This document shows positions 4,836-24,225 of a stretch of DNA of 64,000 nucleotides, piece after piece (the stretch's first letter is position 1; each line of letters starts with the position of its first letter). Both the position numbers and the translations under genes were made by a program. Below the pieces are notes generated by a model, which was not told the origin of the DNA, ran no database searches, and worked only from the letters and a program-made list of their open reading frames with translations. Source of the DNA: Prosthecobacter sp. (GTDB lineage: Bacteria; Verrucomicrobiota; Verrucomicrobiia; Verrucomicrobiales; Verrucomicrobiaceae); assembly GCF_029946185.1 (NCBI RefSeq), contig NZ_JAQSEA010000306.1:11044-75043 (forward strand), written 5' to 3'.

Positions 4836-5633
4836 TTACTGAGTGGCGAACTTGGTGAGGAGTCCACGTTTACGGGTGAGGTTAAGGACCCAGACGAAGA
4901 GCCAGCCGGCGAGAGCTAGGTAGAGAATGTTCAGTCCAGCTGCGTAGCCGAGGTAATCCCAGTTCATGGTACCGGATTTCATGACGGAACGCATGCCTTC
5001 AAAAATGTAGGTGGGTGGGAAACACCAGGCGATGGGACGAGCCCAAGCAGGCATGTCTTCAACCCGGTAAAACACGGCGACGACAGGCTGGAAGAAGAAG
5101 GGAATGGCCCAGGCGAGGGATTCGGCGGCGAGGCCCCAGCGCAGGATCAGGGCCGTGGAGATCATGCCGAGGGACCAGCCAAAGAGCATGAGGTTCAGAA
5201 AGAAGGGAATGAGCCACCAGCTGAGCTGGAAGATATTGAAGGCATATCCGAACCAAGAGATGAAGCTGAGCACGACGGCGGTGATGAGGATGCGCAGCAT
5301 GCCGACGATGAAGGTGGCGCTGATGTACTCCGAAGAACGAACGGGAGCGACGAAGATGTTGAGGAGGTTTCGCGTCCACACGTCTTCAAGGAAGGAAATG
5401 GCGACGCCCTGCTGGGCACGGAACATGATGTCCCAAAGGATCATGCCACCGAGGAAGAAGAGGACGTAGCTGCCGAATTCGGGGGTGGTGTTCTTCTGGA
5501 TGAAGACGGTGACGTTGCCCCACACGACGAGGTCCACCACCGGCCAGAAAGCCAGTTCGACGAGGCGCATGGGGCTGCGAGCATAGAGAAACAGGTAGCG
5601 CATCACGAGGGCGCTGATGATGCGGAAATTCAT
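4836..5633 (-). CDS. ABC-2 type transporter permease
   Basis: 265-aa polytopic membrane protein with about 6 TM helices and an ABC-2/NodJ-YadH-like layout. Its start overlaps the stop of the upstream ATPase gene by 4 nt. Confidence 0.85.
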   Translation of the reverse strand: MNFRIISALVMRYLFLYARSPMRLVELAFWPVVDLVVWGNVTVFIQKNTTPEFGSYVLFFLGGMILWDIMFRAQQGVAISFLEDVWTRNLLNIFVAPVRSSEYISATFIVGMLRILITAVVLSFISWFGYAFNIFQLSWWLIPFFLNLMLFGWSLGMISTALILRWGLAAESLAWAIPFFFQPVVAVFYRVEDMPAWARPIAWCFPPTYIFEGMRSVMKSGTMNWDYLGYAAGLNILYLALAGWLFVWVLNLTRKRGLLTKFATQ

Positions 5634-6415
5634 ACGGCTGACTCTTTTTTAGGTTCGTCGAGGAGTTCGCCGTCGCGGGCGATCTTGATGAAGACATCCT
5701 CAAGGTTGTCGCTGCTGGATTGGGCGACGATGTCTGCCGGGGTGCCTTGGCAGACGATCTTGCCTTTGTGGAGGAAGATGACGCGGTCGCAGACTTCCTC
5801 GATGTCGCGCATGTTGTGGGAGGTGTAGAGAATGGCGACGTTGCGCTCGCGCTGGACCTTGCGCACGACTTTGCGGACCTTGTCGGCGATGTCGGGGTCT
5901 AGGCTGGCGGTGGGCTCGTCGAGCATCAGCAACTCGGGGTCATTGAGGAAGGCTTTGACGAGATTGACGCGGGTGGACTCGCCTGCGGAGAGCTGGCCGG
6001 TAACGCTTTTGCTGAGGTGGGAGATCTCGAGCATCTCCATGAGCTCGGCGATTTTTTTCTTGGGATTCGGAACGCCGTAGATGCGAGCGAAGACGAGGAG
6101 GTTTTGCCAAACGAGGAGATTGCCGGGCAGGGCGGTATAGGCGGAGGAGAAATTCGCGCGCTGGAGGATTTTGATGCGGTTCGCCTGCAAGGGGAGGCCG
6201 AAGGCGTTGAGCTCTCCAGAGGTCGGCAGGGTGAGACCGAGGAGGCAGTTCATGGCGGTGGTCTTGCCTGCACCGTTGGCACCGAGGAGACCGAGCACTT
6301 CGCCGCGGTGGAGTTTGAAGCTGAAACGGTCGAGGGCCTTCACTCCATCGAACTCACGGGTGAGATCGATTGCTTCGAGGATGACTTCGCGGGTGTCTAG
6401 GGGTTCGGCGGACAT
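5630..6415 (-). CDS. ABC transporter ATP-binding protein
   Basis: Walker A 'GANGAGKTT', ABC signature 'LSAGESTR', Walker B 'LLMLDEPTASLD', H-loop 'YTSHNM'. Translationally coupled to the permease. Confidence 0.92.
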   Translation of the reverse strand: MSAEPLDTREVILEAIDLTREFDGVKALDRFSFKLHRGEVLGLLGANGAGKTTAMNCLLGLTLPTSGELNAFGLPLQANRIKILQRANFSSAYTALPGNLLVWQNLLVFARIYGVPNPKKKIAELMEMLEISHLSKSVTGQLSAGESTRVNLVKAFLNDPELLMLDEPTASLDPDIADKVRKVVRKVQRERNVAILYTSHNMRDIEEVCDRVIFLHKGKIVCQGTPADIVAQSSSDNLEDVFIKIARDGELLDEPKKESAV

Positions 6416-6421
6416 GCGCTG

Positions 6422-7180
6422 TTAGAGATAGTCCTCGATGGGCAGTTTGCCGTTCGTGGCGCAGATGAACATGGTGCCGGGCTTGGTGGTGCTGGGCTTG
6501 AGGGTGACTTTGCCGCCGCCCATTTCGACCATGAGCTGACCGGCAGCGATGTCCCAGAGGCTGATTTGCTCCTCCACATAGGCGTCGAGACGGCCGGTGG
6601 CGATGTAGGCCATGGCGAGGGCGGCGCTGCCAAGCATGCGGGTCTTGCGGACTTCGTAGGCGATGCGCTTGTAGCGATCAAAACCGAGGTCGAGTGCTTC
6701 CTTGCTCTTCGAGAAGCCGACGGTGACGACGGCTTCGGACATCTTTGCGCGGGTGCTGACGGCGATCGCTTTGCCGTTGAGGTGGGTCTTTTCGCCACGG
6801 ATGACTGTCCAAGTTTCGTTCTGCATGGGATCAAAGATAACGCCGATGAGGAGTTCTTTGGATTCGCGTTTGCGGGCGGCGATGGAGACGCAGAAGTGCG
6901 GGATGCTGAAGAAGTAATTTACAGTGCCGTCGATGGGATCAACGATCCATTCGACGTCGCCATTGCCGCCAGTTTCGCCGCCTTCCTCGCCGAGGATCGC
7001 GTGATCAGGGAAGCGGGCGAGGATCATGTCGGTGATGAGCTGCTGGCTGCGGACATCGAGCTCGAGCTTGATGTCGTGGCGCTGCATTTCGTTGACGGTG
7101 AGATCGGAGCCGAAGTTTTCTTTGATCATTTTGCCGGCGGCGTGCGCGGCTTCGATGGCGGTGGCGAGGAGTTGTTTCAC
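6422..7180 (-). CDS. inositol monophosphatase family protein (SuhB-like)
   Basis: IMPase motifs 'LGEEGG', 'WIVDPIDGTVNY' and 'WDIAAG'. The start is GTG at 7180, overlapping the coaB stop (GTGA). Confidence 0.88.
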   Translation of the reverse strand: MKQLLATAIEAAHAAGKMIKENFGSDLTVNEMQRHDIKLELDVRSQQLITDMILARFPDHAILGEEGGETGGNGDVEWIVDPIDGTVNYFFSIPHFCVSIAARKRESKELLIGVIFDPMQNETWTVIRGEKTHLNGKAIAVSTRAKMSEAVVTVGFSKSKEALDLGFDRYKRIAYEVRKTRMLGSAALAMAYIATGRLDAYVEEQISLWDIAAGQLMVEMGGGKVTLKPSTTKPGTMFICATNGKLPIEDYL

Positions 7181-7827
7181 TTCGGAGATTTTAGGGATGA
7201 GAGTCGGGAGATGTGCGCGATCAACTCACGCGCGAGGGTGGTTTTCGACTGCCTGGGGAGGGGAATCGTTTGACCACCGGGGAGGCAAAGGGTGACTTCG
7301 TTTTCTGCACTGTCAAACCCGATACCCGGCTGAGATACGTCGTTCGCGATGATGAGGTCGCAGCCTTTACGCGAGAGCTTGTCCTGGGCGTGGGCGATGA
7401 GGTTCTCGGTTTCTGCGGCAAAGCCGACGAGGAAGCCGGTGAAGGCGAAGTGGGAGCGGACGGAACCGAGGATGTCTTCGGTGCGCTCGAGTTCGAGGGT
7501 GAGGGTGGTGGCGGACTTTTTGATCTTTTGCGATGCGGTGTGGGCGGGGCGGTAGTCGGCGACGGCGGCGCTGAAGATGGCGGCGGTGCAGCCTGGGAGA
7601 TGGATACGGACGGCGTCGAACATTTCGCGGGCGGTTTCCACGCGGATGAGTTCCACGTTTGCTGGTGGCAGGATGCTGACGGGGCCGGAGATGAGCAGGA
7701 CTTCGTGGCCAGCTTTGGAGGCGGCTTCAGCCAGCGCGTAGCCCATGCGGCCGGAGGAGCGGTTTGACAGGAACCGTACCGGATCAATCGGCTCTCGCGT
7801 GGGACCGGCGGTGATGAGGAGGCGCAT
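7177..7827 (-). CDS. coaB: phosphopantothenate--cysteine ligase (stand-alone CoaB domain)
   Basis: 'MRLLITAGPTREPIDPVRFLSNRSSGRMG' is the canonical CoaB N-terminus. Track ORF extends to GTG 7848; ATG 7827 is preferred. No CoaC flavoprotein domain is fused. Confidence 0.85.
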   Translation of the reverse strand: MRLLITAGPTREPIDPVRFLSNRSSGRMGYALAEAASKAGHEVLLISGPVSILPPANVELIRVETAREMFDAVRIHLPGCTAAIFSAAVADYRPAHTASQKIKKSATTLTLELERTEDILGSVRSHFAFTGFLVGFAAETENLIAHAQDKLSRKGCDLIIANDVSQPGIGFDSAENEVTLCLPGGQTIPLPRQSKTTLARELIAHISRLSSLKSPK

Positions 7828-8098
7828 GGGTGAATTTTCGGGGGACACTGATTTTACACCGCAGAGTTCGGAACGCCGCAGAGATTTTCCCGAAGGTGTT
7901 TCTTTCAGGGCTTACGCATGAAGTGGCGGATGGGCGTGCGGCGGCCTGAGTGAAAGGAAAGAAGGGACTGAAAGGACGTGGTATTGCGTGATGGTTGGAT
8001 GTTTTGGCGCTGATAATGCGTCAATCCTTACCAACCAAAGGCGGGACGCCTCGATGAGACGCTTTCTCAGAGCACTTCTGGCCGAAGGACTATCCTCC

Positions 8099-11000
8099 TC
8101 ACTCCACCTTCAGCACGCCGTTCATCACCATCCAGTGCCCCGGGAAGGTGCAGAGGTAGGGATAGTCGCCTTTCTCTTTCGGAGCGGTGATGTGAATGGT
8201 GAATTCTCCTTTGGGATTTGTCATGTCGGTATAGGCGAGGACGTCGTCGGAGTCAGGCACGTAGTGTTTCGCCAAGCCCTGCGGATCGGTGATCATGAGA
8301 TTGGCAAGATTGCCGATTTTTTGCAGCGTGCCCGGTTTGGCGAGCATCCAGTTATGCGGTACGACGTCAGGATTCTTGAAGATGATGGTGAGTTTTTCGT
8401 CAGCTTTGGCGGTGAGCTGCTTCTGCACATATTGCAGGCCCAATGCGGCTTCGATGATGAGTTCGCGCCCACCTTCGCCTTTGGCCCATGGATTGAGTTT
8501 GGCCGGTTTCGGGGCTTCGAGGCCGATCTGCGCGGCGTGATTGGTCTTCGCAATTTTGGCGTAGCCGGGGAATTCGCTGAAGGGTTCAGCCAAGGCGTGC
8601 GCAGTGAGGAAGATGTCATGGCCGGTGCTCACATGAAGATGAATCTGGCTCGCGGTGACAATCTGCGGGATTTCGAGGAAGAGGGTCTTGCCGCCGTCGA
8701 GCTTATGCACGCTGCGGACTTCGAGCGGATCATGCCCGGGTGTGTCGGCATACTTCACGGAATACTCGGGCGAGCCATACTGCGGGCCGTAGCGGTAGTT
8801 CCAGCACTGCGCAAAGCAGGTGGCTGCATCGGCATTAGCCACCGGCTGGTTGAAGCGGAGGAGCACCCCATTGTCACGCGCTTCGAAGCCGACGGGCACG
8901 GGTTTCTCACCGCCAGTGAAGCGCACGCGCTGGAAGCAGCCGTCCTTCGGCGTGTAGCTGCCCCAGCCCTGCATGCCGTTCACGTAGAGATGGCCGTCCT
9001 TCGGATTGAAGCGAGCGCACTGCGGTCCGGAGTCAAAATTGCCGCTGATCTTAACGGCCCCGGCCTGCCAGCGGCCTTTGACATTCTGTCGCATGACAAG
9101 CCATGCACTGCCACCGCCGGAAGAGAGGTGAACGAAATTTCCATCGCCTTTGAGCGTGGTCCATTTCTCGCTGGTGATGAAGGCCTGGCTGCTGGCGCTG
9201 TTATCTTCGCCACGCGGCATGTACATCAGCACCGGCTCGGGAGACTGGCCGTTCTTCGGACCACCGGCACCGAAGTGCGCGCCCAGATTGTGATCGAGTT
9301 CAATCTGGCAGATGGAAGTCGCGGGAGTCCAGTCGCCTTCCTGTACACTGGTGGTGAGGAAACGTCCGTCGGGTGAGATACCGAGGCCGTTCGGATTGCG
9401 GAAGCCGGTGCCGAGCACTTCGAGTTTGTCGCGTCCGGTGATGCGGCATACGCCTTGATTGCCGGAGGCGAAATACCAGCGGCCTTCTTTGTCGGTTTCG
9501 AGGCCGACGATGAAGTCGTGTCCGCCAGGGGAGGTTTGCATGGCGTTGGTCACGCACTGGTAGAAATCGGCCTCATCATCGCCATTGAGATCGTGGAGGC
9601 AGGTGATTTGATCGCGGCCGAGGACGTAGAGCTTGTCCTTCACGATCTTCATGCCCAGCGGTTGATTCAAGCCGGTGGCGAAGCGCTTCCAGCGAATTTT
9701 TTCGAGCTTTTCATCAATGCCTTTCACCAGCCAGACTTCGCCGGTCATGGTGGCGATGGCGGCGGTGCCATCGCTGAAGAAGTCGTGCGCGGTGATGAAG
9801 AATAGCGCGCCGTAGGGGTTCTTGAAGGGGATCTCGATGGTGTCAGTGGCAAAGGGCTGCTGGGTGCCGAGCTTGCCTTTGGTTTCGATCCACTGGGGCC
9901 ATTGGGCGGGGCCACTAGCAGTGATTGCCACAAGGTCCTTCGGGTCTCCACTGGCTATGACGTGATCCGTTGCACCGTCTTTTTCGAATACAAAGACGAC
10001 TCTGCGACCAGAGATGTAATAGCCTTGATACAGACCGTCGCGCTTTGTCTGTGATTTGGCCATTACCTTCCCATTCATCGCAGCTCCACCCATGAAACCG
10101 TGGCGTGCATCGCCGAGCTTGATGAAGCCGCCAGTCCATGTGACTGGGATCGAAAGCGTTTCAGGATCAAAGACGCATGACATGTCTCCATATTGCACAC
10201 ACACCGCCTTCGGAATCGTCAGGCCCGCGCCTTTGAAGACACCGCTAAAGACCGGGCCGTGATCGCTTGCGGCGAAGCGGCCATCTTTCCAGGTCACCTG
10301 ATCGTTTTGATTGCCCCAGTGTCCTTGTTGGCCGCCATCGAGACCGGGGAACTGTGGGATCAATACGGGCAGAGGCTTCTGCTTCATGAACTGCAACGCC
10401 TGCTTACCGTAGAAGTCGAAGATGCGCTCGCGATTGACGAACTCCTGCCAGTGCACGTTGTCGTCCGGATTGAGCGGTTTGTGGTCGGGTGTGAAGGCAA
10501 CGGGCTTGGGTGCAGGCGGGGGCAGGAGGGCATCAAGGTTGTCGAAGTCCCAGAGGCCAATCGTGTTGTCCATGCGCAGACGCGGAGCGCTGCCTTTGCG
10601 TGGCTTCATCACACCGCGCGTGAGGCGCACATCATCAAGAAGGCCATCGCAACCAATGCCACCGTCGACAAGACTGCCAAACGCAATGCCACCGGCTGTT
10701 GGGGTGCCTTTGAGCGGCTGCACGGCTTTGGTGAATACTTGCTTGCCATCGATCCAAAGCGTGACGTTCTGTTCGTCAATGTTGACTACGAAGTCGTGCC
10801 ACTTGCCGTCGCAGACATCGACCTTTGAGTCGAAGTCACCGCCCCGCCCCGGCATGTACAGCGCCAGCGTGCCGCGCTTCGCATGCGTGTAGAGCTCCCA
10901 ATGCGTGGCGGATGATTTGGCGTCGGAAGCGATGAGGATGTTGAAGTGATCTTTGCCGGTGAGCTTGGCACGGCACTCAATGGTAAGTGGGAGCGTGCGG

Positions 11001-12028
11001 AAGGGCTCGTTGTCCGACTCAAAGTAGCTGCCCTTCAGTGCCTCGCCGAATTCTATGCTCAGGGATGGGACGCTTTCGCCGGTCATGACTGGTTTGGTGA
11101 TGATGCTGGCGGCAGCGGGTTTCTCATTCCAAGTGCGATACTTCGGCTTCGGGCCGGGGGGATTGTCGTCGAGCTGCGGCAGGAGCCAGGCGAGGCCGTC
11201 GAGATTGTCGAGCAGGCGGCCTTCGGCGTCTTCGTTGGTGTGGTTCAGGATGCCGATGGGGCCGTTGTAACCGCTCGCACGCACGATGCGCAGCACCTTC
11301 ACATCTTCGGTGCCCACGCCGAGCGGGAGAATCTTGCGGCCTTTGGCTTCGCCGTCGATGTCCATGCCGTTGAGATTGAAGCAAAGCAGATGCGGCAGCA
11401 TGCGTGGCAGCACTTTGGCAAGACGGTCGAGATGGCCGTGACCGTGGTGCAGATTGTAAACGATGCCGATGTTTTTGATGCCTTTGGCTTTCAGGGCTTC
11501 CACGATGGCAATGGCGTTCTCCGGCTCGCCATACCAGCCGCCGTGATTGTAGAGAGCGACCTGGCAGCCCAACGGTGCGGCGGCTTCGCAGATCGGCTGC
11601 AGGCGTTCGACTTCTTTCGCTACGCGAGCCTGCTGATCCGCCTCGTCCTTGACCTGGATCGCGCCGCCGTTGCCATTCACCCAGAGCTGGGGATGCACGC
11701 CATGGCGTTTGAAGAGTTCCAGTGTCTGCTTGGCCTCGTCATTGAGCACGGTCGGGAACCACCAGCCCATGAGCTCGATGTGATGTTTTTTGAGCGCGTT
11801 CAATTCCTCATCCCACTGCGGGATGTGCTCCTTGCGGTAGTCATAGACGAACTTCTTCACGCCCATTTTTTCCAGCATGGCCGCACGCTCTTCAGGACCG
11901 CGCTTGCCCGCATCAAACGGGACAATGCACCACGCTGCGAGGTTGGATTTATCAAAGAGAGTTTCTGCGGCCTGCGATTGACCGAGGGCAGACGCGACTA
12001 GGACTAGAGCTAAGAAACGTAAGAGCAT
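8099..12028 (-). CDS. 1309-aa exported multidomain protein: xylose-isomerase-like TIM barrel + LamG + PVC dehydrogenase-type beta-propeller + C-terminal azurin-like cupredoxin
   Basis: Track ORF is 8099..12154. I moved the start to ATG 12028 ('MLLRFLALVLVASALGQSQA' signal peptide), which also removes the overlap with the upstream gene. Domains read by motif, in order: a TIM barrel ('GIVYNLHHGHGH'), then LamG ('DGKWHDFVVNIDEQNVTLWIDGK'), then 'FPGLDGGQQGHWGNQ', then propeller blades ('GLNQPLGMKIVKDKLYVLGRDQITCLHDLNGDDEAD'), and finally an azurin-like end ('HNWML' ... 'YLCTFPGHWMVMNG'). There is no CxxCH anywhere. Confidence 0.85.
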   Translation of the reverse strand: MLLRFLALVLVASALGQSQAAETLFDKSNLAAWCIVPFDAGKRGPEERAAMLEKMGVKKFVYDYRKEHIPQWDEELNALKKHHIELMGWWFPTVLNDEAKQTLELFKRHGVHPQLWVNGNGGAIQVKDEADQQARVAKEVERLQPICEAAAPLGCQVALYNHGGWYGEPENAIAIVEALKAKGIKNIGIVYNLHHGHGHLDRLAKVLPRMLPHLLCFNLNGMDIDGEAKGRKILPLGVGTEDVKVLRIVRASGYNGPIGILNHTNEDAEGRLLDNLDGLAWLLPQLDDNPPGPKPKYRTWNEKPAAASIITKPVMTGESVPSLSIEFGEALKGSYFESDNEPFRTLPLTIECRAKLTGKDHFNILIASDAKSSATHWELYTHAKRGTLALYMPGRGGDFDSKVDVCDGKWHDFVVNIDEQNVTLWIDGKQVFTKAVQPLKGTPTAGGIAFGSLVDGGIGCDGLLDDVRLTRGVMKPRKGSAPRLRMDNTIGLWDFDNLDALLPPPAPKPVAFTPDHKPLNPDDNVHWQEFVNRERIFDFYGKQALQFMKQKPLPVLIPQFPGLDGGQQGHWGNQNDQVTWKDGRFAASDHGPVFSGVFKGAGLTIPKAVCVQYGDMSCVFDPETLSIPVTWTGGFIKLGDARHGFMGGAAMNGKVMAKSQTKRDGLYQGYYISGRRVVFVFEKDGATDHVIASGDPKDLVAITASGPAQWPQWIETKGKLGTQQPFATDTIEIPFKNPYGALFFITAHDFFSDGTAAIATMTGEVWLVKGIDEKLEKIRWKRFATGLNQPLGMKIVKDKLYVLGRDQITCLHDLNGDDEADFYQCVTNAMQTSPGGHDFIVGLETDKEGRWYFASGNQGVCRITGRDKLEVLGTGFRNPNGLGISPDGRFLTTSVQEGDWTPATSICQIELDHNLGAHFGAGGPKNGQSPEPVLMYMPRGEDNSASSQAFITSEKWTTLKGDGNFVHLSSGGGSAWLVMRQNVKGRWQAGAVKISGNFDSGPQCARFNPKDGHLYVNGMQGWGSYTPKDGCFQRVRFTGGEKPVPVGFEARDNGVLLRFNQPVANADAATCFAQCWNYRYGPQYGSPEYSVKYADTPGHDPLEVRSVHKLDGGKTLFLEIPQIVTASQIHLHVSTGHDIFLTAHALAEPFSEFPGYAKIAKTNHAAQIGLEAPKPAKLNPWAKGEGGRELIIEAALGLQYVQKQLTAKADEKLTIIFKNPDVVPHNWMLAKPGTLQKIGNLANLMITDPQGLAKHYVPDSDDVLAYTDMTNPKGEFTIHITAPKEKGDYPYLCTFPGHWMVMNGVLKVE

Positions 12029-12036
12029 GGGGAAGT

Positions 12037-13053
12037 TTAATTGGTGTTGGAATAGGCGGTCCACTGAGCGTCGATCCACTTTGCATCCGGCGCGCCGTCG
12101 AAGACGAGGATGCGGTATTTGGAGACGTAGGGCTTGCCGGGTTCGATGGACCAATCACCAGCTTGCGAAGGAGCGACGCAGAGCTGCGGGTTCTTCGGAT
12201 TGAGGCGCAGGGGCTGTGGAAAGCGGAAGTTCGAGGGATGAATCAGGATCACCATGCCAGTGGGTGCTCCATCGACCAGACCGCCGATATGGACCCACTT
12301 GCCCTTGGTGGAGTCCCCTTTGGCGCGGTCATGACCTTCGCTGGTCAGCATCGTCACGGCATCGACCTGATTCCAGGCGAGATTGCCGCGCACACCAAGA
12401 CCGCCGTAGTGGTACTTCGGCAGTTTCAGCGGCGGCGCCCCCGCACAGGTCTGTGTGCTGGTGAGATCGATGATGTTGGCGGGCTTGCCATCGAGCTCCT
12501 TCTGCGCCACCGCGACCTCCCACGTTTCATTGAGCACCTTTTGATCAGGCGCGTGGCTGTGATCGAGAAACAGATGCTGGCTGATGAAGCCACCGCCATC
12601 AGCACCACCCCAGCTCTTGTCCAGTTTATCGAAACGCACCTCGGCGAGGATCTGGTCGCCGCTCTTGTCCTTGCCGTCGCCTTTGCCCTGATTCCAGAAA
12701 TCGGGATGTTGTACATGTGGCGCCAGACCGTGAATCCCAACGAGACGTGTGTCTTGTGCATCACCGAACTCGGTCTTCGTCCATGCCATCCAGATGCCGC
12801 GATGCCAGCGGTGGTCTTCGGGATGATTGCCCGTGACAAGCTTGCCGCTGGGCGAGTACACCGGATGAAGATGAGCACCGTGTTTGAAGACGGCGGACAC
12901 ACCCTCGGGCACATCGCCCGCCTCCATTTGGTAATCACAGATCGTCTTCCCACCGCTGCTGAAGTGCAGGACGGAGCCGAGCTTTTCCACCTGGATATCG
13001 GCGGAGAAAGTATGGGTGGCCAGAAGGGCGGCAAGAAGAAGGGTCGGCTTCAT
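12037..13053 (-). CDS. secreted PmoA-like / DUF6807 (PF14100-like) family protein
   Basis: ATG start and signal peptide 'MKPTLLLAALLATHTFSA'. The patterns 'HRWHRGIWMAW' and 'ILIHPSNFRFPQPLRLNP' resemble my recollection of the DUF6807 family. It lies 8 nt upstream of the giant fusion gene. Confidence 0.6.
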   Translation of the reverse strand: MKPTLLLAALLATHTFSADIQVEKLGSVLHFSSGGKTICDYQMEAGDVPEGVSAVFKHGAHLHPVYSPSGKLVTGNHPEDHRWHRGIWMAWTKTEFGDAQDTRLVGIHGLAPHVQHPDFWNQGKGDGKDKSGDQILAEVRFDKLDKSWGGADGGGFISQHLFLDHSHAPDQKVLNETWEVAVAQKELDGKPANIIDLTSTQTCAGAPPLKLPKYHYGGLGVRGNLAWNQVDAVTMLTSEGHDRAKGDSTKGKWVHIGGLVDGAPTGMVILIHPSNFRFPQPLRLNPKNPQLCVAPSQAGDWSIEPGKPYVSKYRILVFDGAPDAKWIDAQWTAYSNTN

Positions 13054-13075
13054 GACGATGGAACGAAACGGTGCA

Positions 13076-14350
13076 TCAGAAACTCGCAGGCTTTACAAGC
13101 GTTCCCGCTTTCACTACGCCGCCCTGCATGACGGCAAGGAGGTTGTCGCGGTTTTCGAGAATGGAGATGTCCTGGAGCACGTCACCTTTCACCACGAGGA
13201 CATCGCCCAGTTTGCCAGCTTCGAGCGTGCCTATTTCCTTTTCGCGTCCCATCATCTTCGCGCCGCCGAGAGTGGCCCACTTGATCGTGTCGAGTGTAGA
13301 GAAGCCGACGTAATTGACGAAGAAGGTCAGCTCCTGCGCATAGGTGCCGTGCGGCGTCCAAGCAAAGCCGTAGTCGCCACCGAGGCCCAGGGTGCCACCG
13401 GCCTTGAGCACTTTGCGGCAGCTCTCAGCACCGGCCTCAAGAGTTTCTTGATGACCATCCAGCACACGCTGGGACAAGCCGAACTCCTTGCCACGCTGCA
13501 CGCTGAAGAGCTCGAATCCCAGACCGGGGCACATCGGGACATTGCGCTTGAGCAGGAGGTCGAGGCATTCGTCGTCCATGAAGGTGCCATGTTCGATGGC
13601 ATCGTAGCCAGCCTTGAGCGCATTGCGGATGCCCTCGGTGGCACGGCAGTGACCGGTGACTTTGAGGCCGTGATTGTGCGCCGTGGCCACGACGGCGTGC
13701 ATTTCTTCGAAGGTCATGCACAGCGTGTGGTGGTCGTTGATGTCGGGAGAAGCCGCATCTCCCGTGGGATAGGTTTTCACCCACTCGATGCCGTCTTTGA
13801 CGAGTTTGCGCACTGCACTGCGGGCCTGCTCGGGACCGTTCACGATGAAAACAATCCCCTCCATGCCGATGCGGCGGAAGTCAGGGTTCCAGTCCATCAG
13901 CCCGCCTGCACCGCAGATTTCACGGCCGCTGGCGCTGAGGCGCGGGCCGGGGATCATGTCCTCCTCGATGGCCTTTTTCATCCACACGTCAATGTTGTGC
14001 AGGCAGCCGCCACTGCGCGCCGATGTGTAGCCGCATTCGAGGGCTGTCTTCGCGTTCACGGCAGATTGCAGCGTGACGTATTCCACGGGGAACTTGATGT
14101 CGAGGTCCTGCAGCTCGGACACATTGAAGTAGGTGAGATGGATGTGCGCCTCCACGAGCCCTGGCATGATCGTGCCGCCACCAGCGTCAATGATGCGAGC
14201 CTCAGGAGCTGGTGGAGCCTCCGCAGCGGGACCCGCGTAGCTGATGATGCCGTCCGTGATGATCACAGCGGCGTTCGGAATGGCTGGCCGACCCGTGCCA
14301 TCGACGAGTTGGCCATTTTTGACGACGGTGATGCCTGGTTGGAGCTTCAT
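13076..14350 (-). CDS. amidohydrolase family metal-dependent hydrolase
   Basis: 'PGLVEAHIHL' is the HxH metal motif. 'VTGHCRATEGI..ALKAGYDAIEHG' and a TIM-barrel amidohydrolase layout are also present. Track ORF begins at TTG 14359; ATG 14350 ('MKLQPGITVV') is preferred. Confidence 0.85.
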   Translation of the reverse strand: MKLQPGITVVKNGQLVDGTGRPAIPNAAVIITDGIISYAGPAAEAPPAPEARIIDAGGGTIMPGLVEAHIHLTYFNVSELQDLDIKFPVEYVTLQSAVNAKTALECGYTSARSGGCLHNIDVWMKKAIEEDMIPGPRLSASGREICGAGGLMDWNPDFRRIGMEGIVFIVNGPEQARSAVRKLVKDGIEWVKTYPTGDAASPDINDHHTLCMTFEEMHAVVATAHNHGLKVTGHCRATEGIRNALKAGYDAIEHGTFMDDECLDLLLKRNVPMCPGLGFELFSVQRGKEFGLSQRVLDGHQETLEAGAESCRKVLKAGGTLGLGGDYGFAWTPHGTYAQELTFFVNYVGFSTLDTIKWATLGGAKMMGREKEIGTLEAGKLGDVLVVKGDVLQDISILENRDNLLAVMQGGVVKAGTLVKPASF

Positions 14351-14362
14351 GGTGCGCAAAGG

Positions 14363-15175
14363 CTATCGTTTCGTCCGGCGATTGGATAGAACAGAAGCGG
14401 CAGGGCTTGGAACATTCGCGGCAGCGTAGGTTTCACGATACGCGCCTGGTGTGAGGCTGGTCACGCGGCGGAATTCGCGGGTGAGGTGGCTTTGATCGGC
14501 GAAGCCGCAGCGCAGACCGATGTCAGCGATGGATTCGCGCGTATCGACCAGCAGGCGGCAGGCGTTTTGGATGCGCAGGCGTTTCAGGTATTGCTGCGGT
14601 GGCAGGCCATACTCTCGGACGAAGCTGCGCTCAAAGGCGCGTGGCGACATGCCAACGGCTCGCGCCATGTCGGCATTTGTCACCGATTCACCGAGGCGGC
14701 GGGTCATGAGCGCAATGACGACACCGAGGCGGATGTCGCTGCGCTGATCAATCTGCGCGGCATCCAGTGCGCGCGTGATGCCTGCGGTGCCGACGATGCG
14801 GCCTCGGGCATTGCATACGGGCCGTTTAGTGGTGAAGCACCATGCCGCCGTGTGATCAAAGCGACCGACGAGTTCGAGTCGGCCCTGCACCGTCTGCCCG
14901 GCCAGCACGGCTTCATCTCCTGCACGGAAATGCGCCGCGAGGTGTGCGGGCGAGAAATCATCATCGGTCCTGCCCAGCACTTCATCCAGCAGGTGCATCC
15001 CATAGTTCAGCAGGAAGGTGCGGTTCACCCAAAGGTAGCGGCGCTTGGCGTCCTTGATCCATGCCTGCACGTCCGGCAGCGCGTCAAAAAGATCGCGTAG
15101 GGCATCAACGGGGGATGTGGCGGCGGCTTTGGCTTTCACAAGCGGGAGACTAATCAGAACGTGTTGTGATGACAC
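14363..15175 (-). CDS. AraC family transcriptional regulator with N-terminal PAS-like sensor domain
   Basis: The C-terminal tandem HTH ('ADIGLRCGFADQSHLTREFRRVTSLTPGAYR') is typical of AraC/XylS. The N-terminal 'DALPDVQAWIKDAKRRYLWVNRTFLLNYG' looks like a PAS fold. The start is uncertain (GTG 15175). Confidence 0.85.
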   Translation of the reverse strand: MSSQHVLISLPLVKAKAAATSPVDALRDLFDALPDVQAWIKDAKRRYLWVNRTFLLNYGMHLLDEVLGRTDDDFSPAHLAAHFRAGDEAVLAGQTVQGRLELVGRFDHTAAWCFTTKRPVCNARGRIVGTAGITRALDAAQIDQRSDIRLGVVIALMTRRLGESVTNADMARAVGMSPRAFERSFVREYGLPPQQYLKRLRIQNACRLLVDTRESIADIGLRCGFADQSHLTREFRRVTSLTPGAYRETYAAANVPSPAASVLSNRRTKR

Positions 15176-15250
15176 GCCGAATCATGCAGGCATGAAAAAA
15201 GCGGAGCCGCATGCCGCGGCTCCGCTTGAGGGTAAAACGAATGCTTCTGA

Positions 15251-15607
15251 TTACTGGCGCACTTCTTTGATGTGCTTGTCAGGCGCGGCGTCGAAGGTGG
15301 CCTTGCTGGCGGCATCGGCGAAAGCGACCTGGCGGGTGTAGGTCACGGTTTTGGAAGCATCGGATTTCTTTTTGCTCAGCGGGCACTGGCCAGAGACGGC
15401 AGCGAGGATGTTGCTGAGGTAGCCCTTGGGGGCAGCGGTGAACTGGGCTTTGCACCTGTCGCAGCAGACAGCAACGGTCTTCGAGTAAGTGCTGGTGATG
15501 GCCGGGCTCGCAGGCTTGCCGGAAATGGGGCAGACGGTGTTCAGCGACTCGGCGGCAGGGGAAACGCCAGCCAGAAGGCTGAGGGCGGCGATGAGGATGT
15601 GTTTCAT
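15251..15607 (-). CDS. small secreted protein with tandem YHS/TRASH-like modules (putative metal binding)
   Basis: Only the last 118 codons of track ORF 15251..16141 look real. They start at ATG 15607 with signal peptide 'MKHILIAALSLLAGVSPAAE'. Module 1 is 'VCPISGKP...VAVCCDRCKAQFTAAPKGY'. Module 2, 'QCPLSKKK...VAFADAASKATFDAAPDKH', has lost the Cys pair. Confidence 0.55.
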   Translation of the reverse strand: MKHILIAALSLLAGVSPAAESLNTVCPISGKPASPAITSTYSKTVAVCCDRCKAQFTAAPKGYLSNILAAVSGQCPLSKKKSDASKTVTYTRQVAFADAASKATFDAAPDKHIKEVRQ

Positions 15608-15788
15608 GGTGGGCGGAGAATTATACGACGGCGCACTGGGATACGAATTCATGGATTCTCCGCAACTGAAACTTTCTGATCCTGCGGTGCGGGGATGGCG
15701 GATTCCGCTCTCAGGTACGGACTGAGCCTTTTCTCGCTGAGCACACGCCCGCGTCCGTGTGCATTCTGAGAGGGGAGCCCCCGGGGAG

Positions 15789-18251
15789 TCACTTCGGCTG
15801 ATACTTCGGATAGCGTTGCTGAAGCTGCTGCAGCATCTGCTTGGACTTGGCGGAGTCACCGGCCTTCTGCAGTACCTGGGCGGCTTTGTAGAGAGCGTTG
15901 GGGGTGACATCGGGATCATCAAAGAACTGGCTGGGCACGGCATACTTGGCAGCAGCGTCCTTCCATTTGCCGGCGGCGGCATCCTTCTGGCCTTCAGCGG
16001 CAAGTTTGTCACCCTGCGCAGCATAGATGTCGCCTTCGAGTATAAGGAGTTCGGCCTGGAGCCTGCCGTCTTTGACCACTTGCAGGGCCTCCTGGGCCAC
16101 CTTGTCGGCTTCATCAAAGAGTCCTTTGCCAAGCTGGGCACGGCCTTTGGTCAGCAGCGCACGTGAGCGCGTGGCGCTGTCGGGCTCTGATTTGAGAAAG
16201 TTGTCCGTGGCCTGAATGCTGGCGTCGTACTGCTGGTTGTTGAGCTGCGCCATGCCGAGGTAGTTCCACACGACAGGCTCGGTGTTCTCCGGGTTTTTCG
16301 GGGTGACGGCGAGTTCGAGGAAACGGGCGGCACGTTTGTAGTCGTCGCTGCTGTAAAGCTTGAGGCCGAGCCATTTCAAAATATTCGAGGGCACCAGGCC
16401 GGCGGGTTTGGACTGCAGGTAGTTGTCGATGGTTTTGGCGAGATTGTCGGCGTTCTGGCGTGCGTAGTCGCAGAGGATGATGAGCTGGCTGGACTTTTCG
16501 AGGTAGCCTTTGCTGTCGATCTCAATGGAGCGGCGCAGGGCCGGAACAGCCTTGTCGTAGATCTTCTGGTCGAAATTGCCCCGGCCGATGCCGTAGTAGG
16601 CCTGTGCGGCGGCGGTGGTGGCGGGGAATTGTTTCAGCAGCGTTTCAAACGCTACGATCATGCCCTTTGGATCCTTCTGCTCCATCGCGATGAAGCCGAG
16701 CTGCAGCCAGGAGAGTTCGCAGGCGTCGGATTTGGGGAATTCTTTGGTGACGTGTTCAAAGTCAGCCTTCGCCTTGGGCAGATCGCGAGCATCGCGGTTC
16801 GCGAGACCACGGCGGGCGTAGGCCTTGGGGAGGAACTCATGCCCGGGATTTTCGCTGATGAAACGGGTGAAGGTGCCCACGGCCTCCTGATGGCGTCCGG
16901 CCTCACCCTGTGCCCAGCCCATGTTGAAGAGCGTGCCCGGGCGGAGCTTTTCGGGCAGTTTGTCGAGGCCGATCTCATTGTAGCTCAGCGCCGCCTGCTG
17001 GTAGTCGCCTTTGTTGAAGTAAAAGTCAGCGCGGATCAGGCGTGCCAGCGAGAGGTATTCATGATTGGGGTGCTTTGGCGCCTGACGTGTAATGAAGGCG
17101 GTGGCGAACTCGCCGAGGTCCTTGTCATTCAGCAGATAGAAGCAGTACAACTTCCAGTATCCCGCACTGAAGGCTTCTTCCGTGTCGGCATGATACTGCT
17201 CGATGAGCAGGTAAACTTCAACGGCACGGGCATAACTCTTTCGCATGCGGTAGGCGTGGCCGACGAGCAGCAGCATCTTGGCACGTGCGGCTCCTTGCGG
17301 CAGGACTTCGGAGTTTTTGTTGTAGTAGTCGATGACGCCGTCGTAATCACCCTTGGCATAGAGCGCCTGAATGATGCCCACGAGGGAGATGCCGCGGTTT
17401 AGCTCGCTGGTTTCCGGCATGCGCAGCGCCTTTTCAAACATCGTGATGGACTCTTCCGGCTTATTGAGTTCGGCATAGAGCACGGCCGCACGAATGCTGG
17501 CCTCGGCGATGATGGCCCGGTCGGCGCTGGTCTTGACAAGTTCGTCAAAAATAGGCAACGCCTCGGCCTTTTTGTCCTGACCGAGGTAGATGCTACCGAG
17601 CGTGAGCAGTGACGTTTCGCGGTAAGGATTGTCGGTTTTCACCGCGATCACGCTGTTCAAGGCGGCTGCCTGTCTGGGCTTATCGCCAGCCATTTCATAG
17701 GCGCGGCTTTTGTTGTAGGCGGCAGCCAGCCGGACGGCAGCGCTCTTGGTTTTGGTTTCGGAAAAGTCGAAAAATTTGGCTGAGTCAGAAAACTTGGAGT
17801 CGTTGAACATCATCGCACCGAGGCGATAGGCGCAGGAGGGGGCTCCTTCGCTATCCGGGTAGCGGTTCACGACTTCTTCGTAATAGCCAGCGGCCTGCTT
17901 GAGCTGGTTTTGCTTCATGTAGCACTCGCCCATGCGGTAGAGTGCATCGGGCACCTGCCTGCCGGTGGGATACTGCTGCAGATATTTTCCATACGACTGC
18001 GCGGCCATGCCCCACTCCTGGCGGTCATAGGACAGCGTGGCAAAGTCGAACATGTCGTCATCAGGCCCCTTGGTCCTCGGCGGCGGACTCACGGGAATGG
18101 CCTTCGGCACGGGCGCATCATCTTCGACTGGCAGGGCACGCGGAGGGGCTGGCTGCTGCGCCATGGAAGAGAACGCTGCCAGGCAGAAAAGCACTGGCAT
18201 CAGACGGGGCGCAAGAATGCGCGGCAGGTTGGAAAACTTCGCGGCGGTCAT
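15789..18251 (-). CDS. large TPR-repeat protein with N-terminal anchor/signal and Pro-rich linker (CpoB/YbgF-like repeats)
   Basis: Start moved to ATG 18251 ('MTAAKFSNLPRILAPRLMPVLFCLAAFSSMA'). A Pro-rich 'QQPAPPRALPVEDDAPVPKAIPVSPPPR' follows, then many TPR units with the recurring pattern 'YP.S....A.YR.G'. The start is 1 nt after the exbD stop. Confidence 0.85.
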   Translation of the reverse strand: MTAAKFSNLPRILAPRLMPVLFCLAAFSSMAQQPAPPRALPVEDDAPVPKAIPVSPPPRTKGPDDDMFDFATLSYDRQEWGMAAQSYGKYLQQYPTGRQVPDALYRMGECYMKQNQLKQAAGYYEEVVNRYPDSEGAPSCAYRLGAMMFNDSKFSDSAKFFDFSETKTKSAAVRLAAAYNKSRAYEMAGDKPRQAAALNSVIAVKTDNPYRETSLLTLGSIYLGQDKKAEALPIFDELVKTSADRAIIAEASIRAAVLYAELNKPEESITMFEKALRMPETSELNRGISLVGIIQALYAKGDYDGVIDYYNKNSEVLPQGAARAKMLLLVGHAYRMRKSYARAVEVYLLIEQYHADTEEAFSAGYWKLYCFYLLNDKDLGEFATAFITRQAPKHPNHEYLSLARLIRADFYFNKGDYQQAALSYNEIGLDKLPEKLRPGTLFNMGWAQGEAGRHQEAVGTFTRFISENPGHEFLPKAYARRGLANRDARDLPKAKADFEHVTKEFPKSDACELSWLQLGFIAMEQKDPKGMIVAFETLLKQFPATTAAAQAYYGIGRGNFDQKIYDKAVPALRRSIEIDSKGYLEKSSQLIILCDYARQNADNLAKTIDNYLQSKPAGLVPSNILKWLGLKLYSSDDYKRAARFLELAVTPKNPENTEPVVWNYLGMAQLNNQQYDASIQATDNFLKSEPDSATRSRALLTKGRAQLGKGLFDEADKVAQEALQVVKDGRLQAELLILEGDIYAAQGDKLAAEGQKDAAAGKWKDAAAKYAVPSQFFDDPDVTPNALYKAAQVLQKAGDSAKSKQMLQQLQQRYPKYQPK

Positions 18252-19596: not shown

Positions 19597-21039
19597 TCAG
19601 GCCAGCAATTCCCGCACCACCTTGCACTCGTTTACGCCCGTGAGACGGAAATCCAGCCCCGCGTATTTGTACGTGAACTTTTCGTGGTCGAAGCCCAAAA
19701 TTCGCAAAATCGTGGCGTGCAGGTCATGCACATGCACCGGATTTTCCTGCGCGGCGAAGCCAAATTCATCGGTGGAACCATGCGTATAGCCACCCCGCAC
19801 CCCGCCACCCGCCAGCCACATGGTGAAGCCGTAGTGGTTGTGGTCGCGACCATGCTGCTTACCCGCATTGGCACCGGGCGTCGGAAGTTCCACCGCCGGT
19901 GTGCGGCCAAATTCGCCGCCCCACATCATCAGAGTGTCATCCCAGAGCCCGCGCTGCTTCAAGTCACCCATGAAGGCAGCAATCGCCCCGTCCGTCTGCA
20001 GGCCCAGTTTGCGGTGTTCAAGAATTTCGTCGTGATTGTCCCAGGGTTGGCCCGCGCCGGTCCAGAGCTGGATGAAGCGCACTCCCCGCTCCAGCAAACG
20101 CCGTGCAATCAGGCACTGGCGGCCAAAAGCATGGTCACCATACATCTTCCTCACCGATTCCGGCTCCTTCATGATGTCGAAGGCGTCCGTGGCCTCCATC
20201 TGCATGCGGTAGGCCAGTTCGTAGCTCTGCACCCGGGCTTCCAGCTGCTGGTCGCGGTCCTGCTGTACCAGATTACGCTGGTTCAATTCCTGCAGCAGGT
20301 CGAGCTGGCGGCGCTGCTGCTTCAAGTCGAGCGAGCCGTTCTTGATGAATTCCACGAGTTTTTCGACCCGGGTGTCCTCCGTGTTGATGTAGGCTCCCTG
20401 ATAGGCGCTCGGCAGGAAGGCAGACTGCCAGTTCTTCGTGCGCCGCGTCGGCATGCCTCCTGGGCACATGGCGATGTAGCCGGGCAGGTTGTGATTTTCA
20501 CTGCCCAGACCGTAGGTCACCCACGATCCCATCGTCGGGCGGTTCAAGCGGCCCTCGCCGCTGTTCATCAGGCCAAGGGAAGGCTCATGGTTCGGCACGT
20601 CGGCGTGCATGGAGCGGATCACGCAGAGGTCATCGGCAAAGGCACCTGTCTTTTCAAAGACCTCGCTCACTTCGAGCCCGCACTCACCGCGTTTCGTGAA
20701 TTTGAAGGGGGATTTGAAGCCCGCACCCGTAGGACGCTCCGTTTTGAGCACGTTCGGCAGCGGTTTGCCGTCGTATTGGTCCAGCATCGGCTTCGGATCG
20801 AAGGTATCGACGTGAGACGGCCCGCCGTTCATGAAGAAATGCACCACCCGCTTGGCCTTTGGCTCAAAATGCGGACGCTTCACCGCCATCGGGTCCATCG
20901 TTGCCGCAGAGGCCTGCGATGTGAACAGCGAGCCGGCGGCCATCGTGCCAAAGCCCATGCCGACACGCTGCAGCAGTTCGCGACGTGTCAAAAAGGCATG
21001 CTCCAAGTTTGGGGCATGATGTGAAAAAATTGAACTCAT
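19597..21039 (-). CDS. DUF1501 domain protein (sulfatase-fold, Tat-type signal)
   Basis: 'LTRRELLQRVGMGFGTMAAGSL' is a Tat-like leader. The DUF1501-typical body includes 'VVHFFMNGGPSHVDTFDPKP', 'IRSMHADVPNHEP' and 'GRDHN'. An alternative upstream start lies at 21090. Confidence 0.88.
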   Translation of the reverse strand: MSSIFSHHAPNLEHAFLTRRELLQRVGMGFGTMAAGSLFTSQASAATMDPMAVKRPHFEPKAKRVVHFFMNGGPSHVDTFDPKPMLDQYDGKPLPNVLKTERPTGAGFKSPFKFTKRGECGLEVSEVFEKTGAFADDLCVIRSMHADVPNHEPSLGLMNSGEGRLNRPTMGSWVTYGLGSENHNLPGYIAMCPGGMPTRRTKNWQSAFLPSAYQGAYINTEDTRVEKLVEFIKNGSLDLKQQRRQLDLLQELNQRNLVQQDRDQQLEARVQSYELAYRMQMEATDAFDIMKEPESVRKMYGDHAFGRQCLIARRLLERGVRFIQLWTGAGQPWDNHDEILEHRKLGLQTDGAIAAFMGDLKQRGLWDDTLMMWGGEFGRTPAVELPTPGANAGKQHGRDHNHYGFTMWLAGGGVRGGYTHGSTDEFGFAAQENPVHVHDLHATILRILGFDHEKFTYKYAGLDFRLTGVNECKVVRELLA

Positions 21040-24213: not shown

Positions 24214-24225
24214 TCGCATTCCATT

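Follow-up and report, generated by a model that had tools for sequence, protein, structure and literature searches.

Soluble aldose dehydrogenases dependent on pyrroloquinoline quinone (PQQ) are known from bacteria as single-domain enzymes that use free acceptors, and we know of no member of this class that carries a cupredoxin. Fungal AA12 pyranose dehydrogenase, with its fused cytochrome and carbohydrate-binding module, follows a logic of dehydrogenase, tethered carrier and sugar binding. In the 3-keto-glycoside pathways, LacABC and ThuAB deliver their electrons to cytochrome c (PMC8121099), and the oxidative chitin (Ong) pathway uses an enzyme of the amidohydrolase superfamily, OngB, to deacetylate a C1-oxidised amino sugar, N-acetylglucosaminate (PMC12017989). 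Propeller proteins of the TIGR02604 type have been approached through a Chthoniobacter cosmid that pairs a TIGR02604-cytochrome protein with a PF14100 (DUF6807) protein, and purified Lac161_ORF7 (TIGR02604, HEAT and cytochrome c) showed lactose-hydrolysing activity (Km 1.8 mM; PMC5342196). Here we analyse a 64,000-nucleotide stretch of Prosthecobacter sp. DNA (contig NZ_JAQSEA010000306.1; hereafter the window), in which four open reading frames (ORFs) lie in tandem on the minus strand between positions 8099 and 15175 and encode, in 5' to 3' order, a PAS-AraC regulator, an amidohydrolase, a secreted DUF6807 protein and a giant multidomain secreted protein.

We tentatively read this cluster as a regulator-led unit built around a periplasmic carbohydrate dehydrogenase that is wired to azurin, with the DUF6807 protein as its helper and with the amidohydrolase and the PAS-AraC regulator as an optional cytoplasmic continuation and sensor. 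In such a unit, the six-bladed propeller of the giant protein, which has the fold of PQQ-type aldose dehydrogenases, would oxidise a sugar or sugar derivative in the periplasm, and the two electrons would reach the respiratory chain singly, via the tethered azurin-type domain. The roles of the N-terminal TIM barrel and of the LamG domain would be to bind the carbohydrate or the product of its oxidation or to process either further, and the secreted DUF6807 protein would help the same periplasmic chemistry. The oxidised product would then be imported, the cytoplasmic amidohydrolase would cut an amide bond beside the carboxylate, and PAS-AraC would induce the unit on sensing a pathway intermediate. 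In the version that we prefer, an N-acylated amino sugar would be oxidised at C1 to an N-acyl-amino-aldonate. The analysis establishes the gene layout, domain identities, folds, copper ligands, domain swapping within the family and neighbourhood statistics; we infer the redox activity, the direction of electron flow, the cofactor, the substrate, the roles of the TIM barrel, LamG and DUF6807, and co-transcription.

The main evidence comes from the core of the giant protein (residues 500-1195), which comprises a DUF6797 domain, the propeller and a second beta-sandwich. In at least 2591 clusters at 50% identity the representative matches this core (E <= 1e-30 for 802), the proteins being 370-2360 residues long, and the matches span residues ~695-1135 of the giant protein (query residues ~195-635), that is, the propeller with the beta-sandwich. 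The propeller family extends at ~40% identity across these clusters and has no Pfam model of its own. A Pfam scan of 39 diverse core relatives found DUF6797 in 38, a plastocyanin/azurin (Copper-bind) domain in 13 and cytochrome c in 10, together with a xylose-isomerase-like TIM barrel in 11, ThuA in 10, LamG in 10 and PA14 in 3. The pairing of the core with either of two one-electron carriers and either of two sugar-pathway domains is the strongest argument for a carbohydrate redox enzyme, because a swappable one-electron carrier is what a redox enzyme needs; by its domain company, it argues that the core is a sugar dehydrogenase of the periplasm that brings its own electron carrier. An earlier interpretation made from the letters of the window (the sequence-only reading) had proposed a redox enzyme that feeds its own copper domain, and this census, together with the invariance of the copper ligands, lends that proposal support.

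The same reading had been aware of no described system composed like the cluster and had asked whether the 1309-residue fusion might be an artefact of assembly or frameshift. More than 120 clusters (90% identity) match the giant protein end to end at 70-88% identity, and with the relatives recovered by a genome scan they lead us to reject an artefact and to regard the ORF as genuine. The composition is not unique: the giant protein represents one of the permutations found in a large family that is catalogued but uncharacterised and whose proteins are already in databases under generic names; among the source names of the matching clusters are 'azurin/sugar phosphate isomerase/epimerase', 'DUF6797 domain-containing protein' and 'LamG-like jellyroll'. 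Relatives of the giant protein occur in 406 species-level genomes, and the best 80 of these 406 (64-88% identity) all belong to Verrucomicrobiales, namely Prosthecobacter, Brevifollis and related metagenome-assembled genomes (MAGs). The giant ORF stays open as far as TTG 12154, where it overlaps the DUF6807 gene, and all homologues start at ATG 12028.

The carrier at the C-terminus is the most clearly defined part of the protein. Its score against PF00127 (Copper-bind) is 34.6 bits for a cut-off of 21.2, and a profile of the giant protein retrieved azurins only from the PDB, with auracyanin A (2AAN) at E = 2.3e-14. The predicted copper ligands His1225, Cys1293 (TGC 8150-8152), His1298 and Met1302 keep the azurin spacing H...C-x4-H-x3-M and are invariant in alignments of 12 and of 57 homologues. 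The score against the azurin equivalog TIGR02695 is below its cut-off (37.6 bits versus 105.1), which makes this an azurin-like domain and not an azurin orthologue. The haem motif CxxCH (C..CH) is absent from all 1309 residues.

The structure of the giant protein was predicted with AlphaFold as two halves from 57-sequence alignments. The model of the C-terminal half (mean predicted local distance difference test, pLDDT, of 65) shows a disordered linker, the DUF6797 sandwich, the propeller, the second sandwich and the cupredoxin; the low-confidence linker ahead of DUF6797 (residues ~500-582) holds an invariant GHWGNQND motif. For the propeller, the top structural hit was 2ISM, a homologue of soluble glucose dehydrogenase from Thermus (E = 3.5e-11, target-normalised TM-score, TMt, 0.68, 18% identity). 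The sequence-only reading had called a propeller of the 'membrane-bound dehydrogenase' type of the PVC (Planctomycetota-Verrucomicrobiota-Chlamydiota) group; the propeller itself stands, by the model and by a BLAST match to a true DUF7133 protein (E = 3e-5), whereas the assignment to that type is only remote, with 27.6 bits against a cut-off of 122.2 for TIGR02604 and 17 bits against 27 for DUF7133 (E = 0.0038). A profile of the 39 diverse relatives was aligned by hhalign with E. coli YliI at E = 2.6e-4 and a probability of just 42%, placing His837 on the His of YliI GNHFGGR and FRNPNG (R877-N878) on IRNPQG; this diverse profile was used instead of a narrower propeller profile, which reached 6% probability. 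The GNH His and the RNP residues of YliI are what we take to be the catalytic base and the PQQ-binding pair, a lead rather than proof. Against PDB sequences, the propeller profile gave chance-level hits only. A multi-His metal centre in the propeller, similar to that of nitrous oxide reductase, was considered and rejected, H748, H918 and H967 being invariant in close relatives only.

In the N-terminal half, whose model has a mean pLDDT of 76, a (beta/alpha)8 barrel is followed by a jelly roll, the blocks of the barrel lying mostly at pLDDT 80-97. Pfam confirms the LamG and cupredoxin calls of the sequence-only reading, and its TIM barrel is upheld by fold, the match to PF01261 (AP_endonuc_2) being marginal at 29.8 bits for the whole protein and 34.9 bits for the isolated domain (cut-off 31.1). 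Foldseek aligned the barrel with ketose 3-epimerases, UlaE, YcjR and the Planctomyces structure 4OVX (TMt 0.6-0.69, E down to 3e-10). The invariant motifs YNHGGW, NLHHGHxH, NLNGMD and LNHT stand where the canonical E/D/H/E ligands would be: in a weak profile alignment with 4OVX (E = 0.0012), Tyr160 is at the first Glu (YNH for ENH), Asn192 at the Asp, and LNH lies on the strand of the last Glu. With the canonical ligands lost, the term 'sugar-isomerase type' describes the fold only. The LamG domain resembles DUF1080 at E = 0.0074 over 43 residues only.

The three partner genes correspond to the original domain calls (PAS-AraC, amidohydrolase and DUF6807), which were borne out by Pfam and NCBIfam, and the Sec-like N-termini of the DUF6807 and giant proteins agree with the signal peptides proposed for both. 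Signal peptides were judged by a hydrophobic core and an A/S-x-A site rather than by a dedicated predictor, and by this inspection of N-termini none is seen in the amidohydrolase or the regulator. The amidohydrolase aligns over its full length, from residue 9, with the cytoplasmic-type Cc2672 (3MTW, E = 8.5e-58), and also with Sgx9260 prolidases (2QS8) and ochratoxinases. All its binuclear metal ligands (HxH, Lys, His, His, Asp) are retained in the alignment with 3MTW, where the motifs ahihl/mhvhl, wvKt/viKi, tgHc/aaHa, iEHg/iEHa and ggDy/gtDa face each other. The score against the equivalog NF051886 is half of the cut-off (249.6 versus 500 bits), so the enzyme is not an orthologue of Cc2672. 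Since an amidohydrolase without a signal peptide cannot prepare a periplasmic substrate, the proposal that it does so was abandoned; a place after oxidation and uptake is more plausible, and by its N-terminus and alignment the enzyme more likely acts after import of the oxidised product. The chemistry of the Cc2672/Sgx9260 group is amide hydrolysis in which the amine part is an alpha-amino acid, and oxidation of an N-acyl amino sugar at C1 would give an N-acyl-2-amino-2-deoxy-aldonate, which in chemical terms belongs to the N-acyl-alpha-amino acids, the substrate class of this group.

By layout, the four genes form one insulated, regulator-led transcription unit and are presumably co-transcribed; they share a strand, are separated by short gaps with no terminator inside, and are insulated at both flanks. 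The gaps measure 12 nt (regulator/amidohydrolase), 22 nt (amidohydrolase/DUF6807) and 8 nt (DUF6807/giant gene), exactly as the sequence-only reading had given them, and the tight spacing is preserved in the closest 12-19 related loci. The borders are a strong, conserved terminator upstream and a 250-nt non-coding gap (7849-8098) downstream. This terminator is the sole strong site of a scan that found 7 terminator-like sites where 8.4 were expected from shuffles; none lies at a gene junction of the cluster, and the remaining hits are weak and no commoner than in shuffled sequence. In relatives with the same upstream context of a TPR gene and a small gene, the terminator is kept with stem-preserving substitutions (alignment of 19 loci). 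The coordinates of the features are collected in Table 1.

Table 1. Features of the four-gene cluster and of two gene types found beside giant genes in related loci. Positions are those of the window unless preceded by a locus number.
Feature	Position	Strand	Remarks
Giant multidomain secreted protein gene	8099..12028	-	1309 aa from ATG 12028; stop codon 8099-8101
Signal peptide (predicted), aa 1-21	11966..12028	-	MLLRFLALVLVASALGQSQAA/E; heuristic; consensus N-terminus conserved
Divergent xylose-isomerase-like TIM barrel, aa ~22-300	11129..11965	-	AP_endonuc_2 (PF01261) match marginal; fold matches
LamG / concanavalin-A-like jelly roll, aa 333-474	10607..11032	-	Laminin_G_3 52.5 bits, above cut-off; model
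DUF6797 beta-sandwich, aa ~590-700	9929..10261	-	Pfam 31.1-36.1 bits, passes cut-off; model
Six-bladed beta-propeller, aa ~701-1040	8909..9928	-	Presumed catalytic dehydrogenase domain; invariant His837, Arg877-Asn878
Beta-sandwich, aa ~1041-1145	8594..8908	-	Constant companion of the propeller; no Pfam match
Azurin-type type-1 copper domain, aa ~1188-1309	8102..8467	-	Copper-bind; putative copper site
Secreted DUF6807 ('PmoA-like') protein gene, 338 aa	12037..13053	-	PF14100 182 bits, model positions 4-269 of 270
In-frame 48-nt insertion in the DUF6807 gene	12710..12757	-	16 aa, AQDTRLVGIHGLAPHV; homologue alignment
Amidohydrolase gene, 424 aa	13076..14350	-	Amidohydro_1 113.6 bits; Cc2672/Sgx9260 carboxypeptidase-prolidase group
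PAS_4-AraC (HTH_18) regulator gene, first gene	14363..15139	-	Pfam-confirmed; 258 aa from GTG 15139; ORF open to GTG 15175
Putative leader/promoter region, ~60 nt	15140..15198	-	Conserved blocks TGCCTGCATGATTC and CGTGTCATC.AAACACGTTC; alignment of 19 loci
Intrinsic terminator	15199..15227	-	13-bp stem, 9 G-C pairs, T-run; closes the small secreted gene upstream
1117-aa fusion gene in relatives	L044:2461-5814	+	Also L007, L013, L014, L029, L080
Stand-alone secreted TIM-barrel paralogue in relatives, ~310 aa	L075:7210-8142	+	Also L027, L061, L082:7226-8152

The conservation of the partners bears most directly on whether the four genes form one system. It was assessed in the neighbourhoods of the 80 closest relatives only, by tblastn, in the 65 loci with at least 6 kb of upstream sequence, a partner being counted when it lay at most 6.5 kb upstream of the giant gene and in the same orientation; other neighbours in relatives were called by a heuristic gene caller scored on codon usage. 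All three partners accompany the giant gene in 19 of the 65 loci. AraC with the amidohydrolase, the amidohydrolase with DUF6807, and the amidohydrolase alone are found in five loci each, DUF6807 alone in six and AraC alone in one, and 24 loci have no partner. The three partner genes are therefore optional add-ons to the giant protein, and neither full co-conservation of the four genes in related genomes nor the 'self-contained' module of the sequence-only reading survives these counts, other enzymes being slotted in. Full sets concentrate among the closest relatives (12 of 13 loci at >=80% identity of the giant protein, 5 of 27 at 70-79% and 2 of 25 below 70%), and their near-universal presence in the first class says little on function, since genomes at >=80% identity keep the whole surrounding synteny. 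The links between the giant gene and its partners also reappear amid many sets of unrelated flanking genes and with the gene order changed, as in DUF6807-AraC-amidohydrolase-giant, and such recurrence argues for a functional link.

The most serious rival, which we nevertheless consider unlikely, holds that two modules are juxtaposed: an AraC-amidohydrolase pair for the cytoplasmic catabolism of peptides or N-acyl-amino acids would, in this lineage, be merely adjacent to, and co-transcribed with, a periplasmic unit of DUF6807 and the giant protein. The uneven partner counts are compatible with this, with the amidohydrolase (with or without AraC) lacking DUF6807 in 10 loci, and the two modules would reside in different cell compartments. 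The junctions point in the same direction: that between AraC and the amidohydrolase is the tightest (<=60 nt in 25 of 27 loci), the amidohydrolase-DUF6807 junction is tight in 15 of 23 loci, and the DUF6807-giant junction is tight in 15 of 36, small PD-(D/E)XK genes often being inserted. Moreover, the amidohydrolase is better conserved (80-96% identity, >120 clusters) than the giant protein (64-88%), and in another context it accompanies a GntR regulator and an alpha/beta-hydrolase, the giant gene being absent from the 8 kb around it. What counts against mere juxtaposition is the repetition of the adjacency across many flanking contexts and gene orders. Starting from amidohydrolase homologues (82-90% identity), the giant gene is met in 3 of 5 distinct contexts, and in one of the others (the contig of P0517) AraC, amidohydrolase and alpha/beta-hydrolase genes face a PQQ-repeat propeller-cytochrome c quinohaemoprotein (725 residues) and a TIM barrel (329 residues), apparently an analogous replacement of the giant protein.

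Other neighbours in the relatives speak to the nature of the substrate. The same block may hold a secreted sulfatase, a SASA/GDSL esterase, a stand-alone TIM barrel or an alpha/beta-hydrolase; a sulfatase-GDSL-SASA fusion of 1460 residues was seen once. ThuA, DUF1080, heparinase II/III, Gfo/Idh/MocA and a divergent FAH and SDR pair also occur nearby, and some relatives have intradiol dioxygenase, cupin and histidinol-dehydrogenase-like genes. A fusion of a DUF7133 propeller, HEAT, cytochrome c and DUF6807 (1117 residues) adjoins the giant gene in six relatives; like the pairing on the Chthoniobacter cosmid, it speaks for a link of DUF6807 to the giant protein.

A second rival keeps the redox function and either reverses the flow, so that azurin would donate electrons to a reductive or oxygen-activating site in the propeller or in the His-rich TIM barrel, or replaces the carbohydrate by another substrate such as an amine, an alcohol or an aromatic compound. 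We regard it as improbable. Nitrous oxide reductases, which combine a propeller with an electron-donating cupredoxin domain, are among the fold hits, the barrel has an invariant His-rich NLHHGHxH motif in place of the usual ligands, and the intradiol dioxygenase, cupin and histidinol-dehydrogenase-like neighbours of some relatives would fit a different substrate. However, the nitrous oxide reductase matches have a root-mean-square deviation of ~30 A and therefore share the order of domains only and no superposable structure, no propeller His other than His837 is conserved family-wide, and carbohydrate-active neighbours predominate. A non-redox propeller that cleaves carbohydrates as a glycoside hydrolase or lyase, with the copper domain structural or unrelated, is the least probable account and in our view very unlikely: although Lac161_ORF7 hydrolysed lactose, TIGR02604 proteins have been listed as 'putative beta-propeller glycoside hydrolases' (PMC7397252) and relatives carry the carbohydrate-binding-type domains LamG and PA14, the copper ligands are invariant, without electron transfer it is difficult to account for the systematic pairing of the core with a cupredoxin or cytochrome c, TIGR02604 is only distantly related to the giant protein, the fold matched is that of dehydrogenases, and oxidative glycoside cleavage could also explain the reported 'hydrolysis'.

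Returning to the azurin-wired carbohydrate dehydrogenase, several observations weigh against it or against parts of it. No member of the DUF6797-propeller family has a reported assay, substrate, cofactor or product, and the sole biochemical report on a related propeller is of lactose hydrolysis, not oxidation (PMC5342196). In sequence the propeller resembles PQQ enzymes only weakly, GSDH of Pfam giving no match and hhalign the low probability stated above, the structural models are of moderate confidence in both halves, and the canonical Glu-Asp-His-Glu metal ligands are missing from the TIM barrel. At the level of the cluster, more than a third of the related loci (24 of 65) lack all three partners, and the cluster has no transporter that is conserved among the related loci. 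The amidohydrolase belongs to the L-specific Cc2672 group, and the D-aminoacylase-like group of OngB is not among its PDB matches. Finally, the associations with the TIM barrel, ThuA and DUF1080 fit oxidation at C3, to a 3-keto-glycoside, as well as oxidation at C1. We favour C1 because of the precedent of the fold, the logic of the amidohydrolase and the FAH/SDR neighbours, which are genes of aldonate pathways.

In its boldest form, the proposal would make the giant protein the first 'copper-wired' sugar dehydrogenase, one secreted polypeptide in which a propeller of the PQQ type or with a new cofactor oxidises C1 of a sugar that is N-acylated or decorated in another way, passes electrons through a built-in azurin to the respiratory chain and yields an N-acyl-amino-aldonate that is imported and de-acylated by the Cc2672-type amidohydrolase, an oxidative amino-sugar route independent of lytic polysaccharide monooxygenases (LPMOs). 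We advance this version as speculation with a low chance of being right in full. If it were true, it would define a function for thousands of PVC-group proteins as well as for DUF6807 and DUF6797. More generally, the DUF6797-propeller core, with its swapped carriers and sugar-handling domains, is functionally uncharacterised despite its presence in thousands of clusters; if it is a periplasmic sugar dehydrogenase linked to the respiratory chain, it would represent a major non-hydrolytic route to energy from glycans in Verrucomicrobiota and Planctomycetota and would help explain the many giant proteins of the 'cytochrome/azurin + ThuA/TIM barrel' kind in their genomes. Our literature search found nothing on DUF6797 and one passing mention of DUF6807, and for PF14100, TIGR02604 and DUF7133 it returned the Lac161 cosmid paper and one genome description only. 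The cluster offers a handy entry point, with a dedicated sensor-regulator, a tractable partner enzyme and cultured carriers (Prosthecobacter fluviatilis KACC 12649, L006, whose cluster is complete).

Several features of the cluster and its relatives complete the description. The regulator probably starts at GTG 15139 and not at GTG 15175, as locus L007 lacks 19 nt between the two codons, and sequence conservation sets in at GTGAAAGCC; this start leaves just ~60 nt from the terminator to the start codon. The conserved blocks of this interval, a putative promoter or leader, include an imperfect palindrome, CGTGTCATC.AAACACG, on the minus strand. A TAGTCT box lies 7 nt ahead of GTG 15139 and would imply a leaderless or near-leaderless mRNA; a promoter scan of positions 7600-16000 found no match to the sigma-70 consensus. 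The 16-residue insertion in the DUF6807 protein falls within a loop that separates two conserved motifs, TEFGD and HPDFWN, and all 16 homologues lack it, even those that are 88% identical; the inserted 48 nt have no second copy in the window and are no simple duplication. A PDB sequence search with the DUF6807 protein gave no matches. In 12 loci, a PDDEXK_3 gene stands between DUF6807 and the giant gene (e.g. L035:9484-9912), with a spacing of ~580 or 655 nt. In some relatives, the giant gene has the stand-alone TIM-barrel paralogue just ahead of it, accompanied by genes of the histidinol-dehydrogenase-like, cupin, alpha/beta-hydrolase and sulfatase kinds. One Prosthecobacter MAG (loci L060 and L061) has two paralogous giant genes, 88% and 68% identical to that of the window, one with a full partner set and the other with the amidohydrolase only, 2.5 kb downstream.

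The apparent 610-nt gap upstream of the cluster is occupied by a small secreted Cys-rich gene (15251..15652, minus strand). Its product has no Pfam match and shows two half-repeats resembling CP-x-SGKP / CC-x2-C; it may be a metal-binding protein of the TRASH/YHS-like kind. In 23 related loci this gene is kept just ahead of the cluster, and in L011, L033 and L038, which are without the three partners, it lies directly upstream of the giant gene. Downstream, beyond the 250-nt gap, an unrelated run of genes (4836-7848, minus strand) encodes phosphopantothenoylcysteine synthetase (CoaB), inositol monophosphatase and an ABC transporter. A role for these genes was rejected, none being near the giant gene in the 80 related loci. 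Synteny ends right after the giant gene, where close relatives have divergent genes for an FAH-family hydrolase and an SDR (22-23 loci). Elsewhere in the window, a separate 3-keto-disaccharide hydrolase gene (DUF1080, 143.8 bits) lies 28 kb away at 40174-41151 on the minus strand, followed by two unannotated minus-strand genes (41188-43042). Positions 19597-28569 hold gene pairs of the PVC kind, namely DUF1501, a PSCyt1/PSD/DUF1592-type cytochrome with DUF1552, and PSCyt1-DUF1549-DUF1553; these pairs and the ~60% G+C content fit an origin in Verrucomicrobiaceae.

Among the known systems close to the giant protein are the TIGR02604/DUF7133 proteins (e.g. Lac161_ORF7, AGW45552). Both are secreted multidomain proteins of Planctomycetota and Verrucomicrobiota in which a six-bladed propeller is fused to a one-electron carrier, their propellers have the DLNGDDEAD and G-x-RNP motifs in common, and both are associated in genomes with DUF6807, including as fusions. 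Unlike those proteins, which carry HEAT repeats and a CxxCH cytochrome c, the giant protein lacks both features and scores far below the cut-offs of the corresponding hidden Markov models; its predicted carrier is a type-1 copper domain instead of haem, it adds DUF6797, a TIM barrel and LamG, and its propeller belongs to a separate, better-conserved family.

The soluble PQQ aldose dehydrogenases (A. calcoaceticus sGDH, E. coli YliI/Asd and T. thermophilus TTHA0570, the source of 2ISM) share the propeller fold and a periplasmic or extracellular location with the giant protein, and the GNH and RNP motifs of YliI align with its His837 and Arg-Asn pair at the low hhalign probability already mentioned. 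In contrast to these single-domain enzymes, to which its propeller is only ~18% identical, the giant protein is multidomain and has a predicted carrier of its own, an arrangement whose logic is that of the fungal AA12 enzyme. The 3-keto-glycoside pathways (Bacteroides thetaiotaomicron BT2156-BT2160, Agrobacterium/Sinorhizobium ThuAB and Caulobacter LacABC) offer the same set of functions as is proposed for the cluster, that is, a periplasmic sugar dehydrogenase, a xylose-isomerase-like TIM barrel and a concanavalin-like jelly roll, which in those pathways is DUF1080. Some relatives of the giant protein carry ThuA where it has the TIM barrel, and ThuA and DUF1080 are among the neighbours. Their dehydrogenases, however, are Gfo/Idh/MocA or FAD enzymes and not propellers, whereas in the giant protein all functions would reside on one polypeptide whose TIM barrel is without the canonical ligands.

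For the cytoplasmic part, the step catalysed by OngB, the removal of an N-acyl group from a C1-oxidised amino sugar, is the one proposed for the amidohydrolase of the cluster. OngB is D-aminoacylase-like and mononuclear, unlike the cluster enzyme of the Cc2672/Sgx9260 group, and oxidation in the Ong pathway is by an LPMO, whereas a dehydrogenase is proposed here; no Ong homologues were seen at the cluster. The Cc2672 L-arginine carboxypeptidase (3MTW), the Sgx9260 prolidases and ochratoxinase are closer counterparts, with end-to-end alignment and common metal-ligand motifs, although the equivalog score sets the enzyme apart from Cc2672 itself. At the electron-transfer end, azurin and auracyanin share with the domain of the giant protein the cupredoxin fold and the ligand motifs HNW and C-T-F-P-G-H-x-x-x-M, and where azurin is a free carrier, the copper domain described here is the C-terminal part of a 1309-residue protein.

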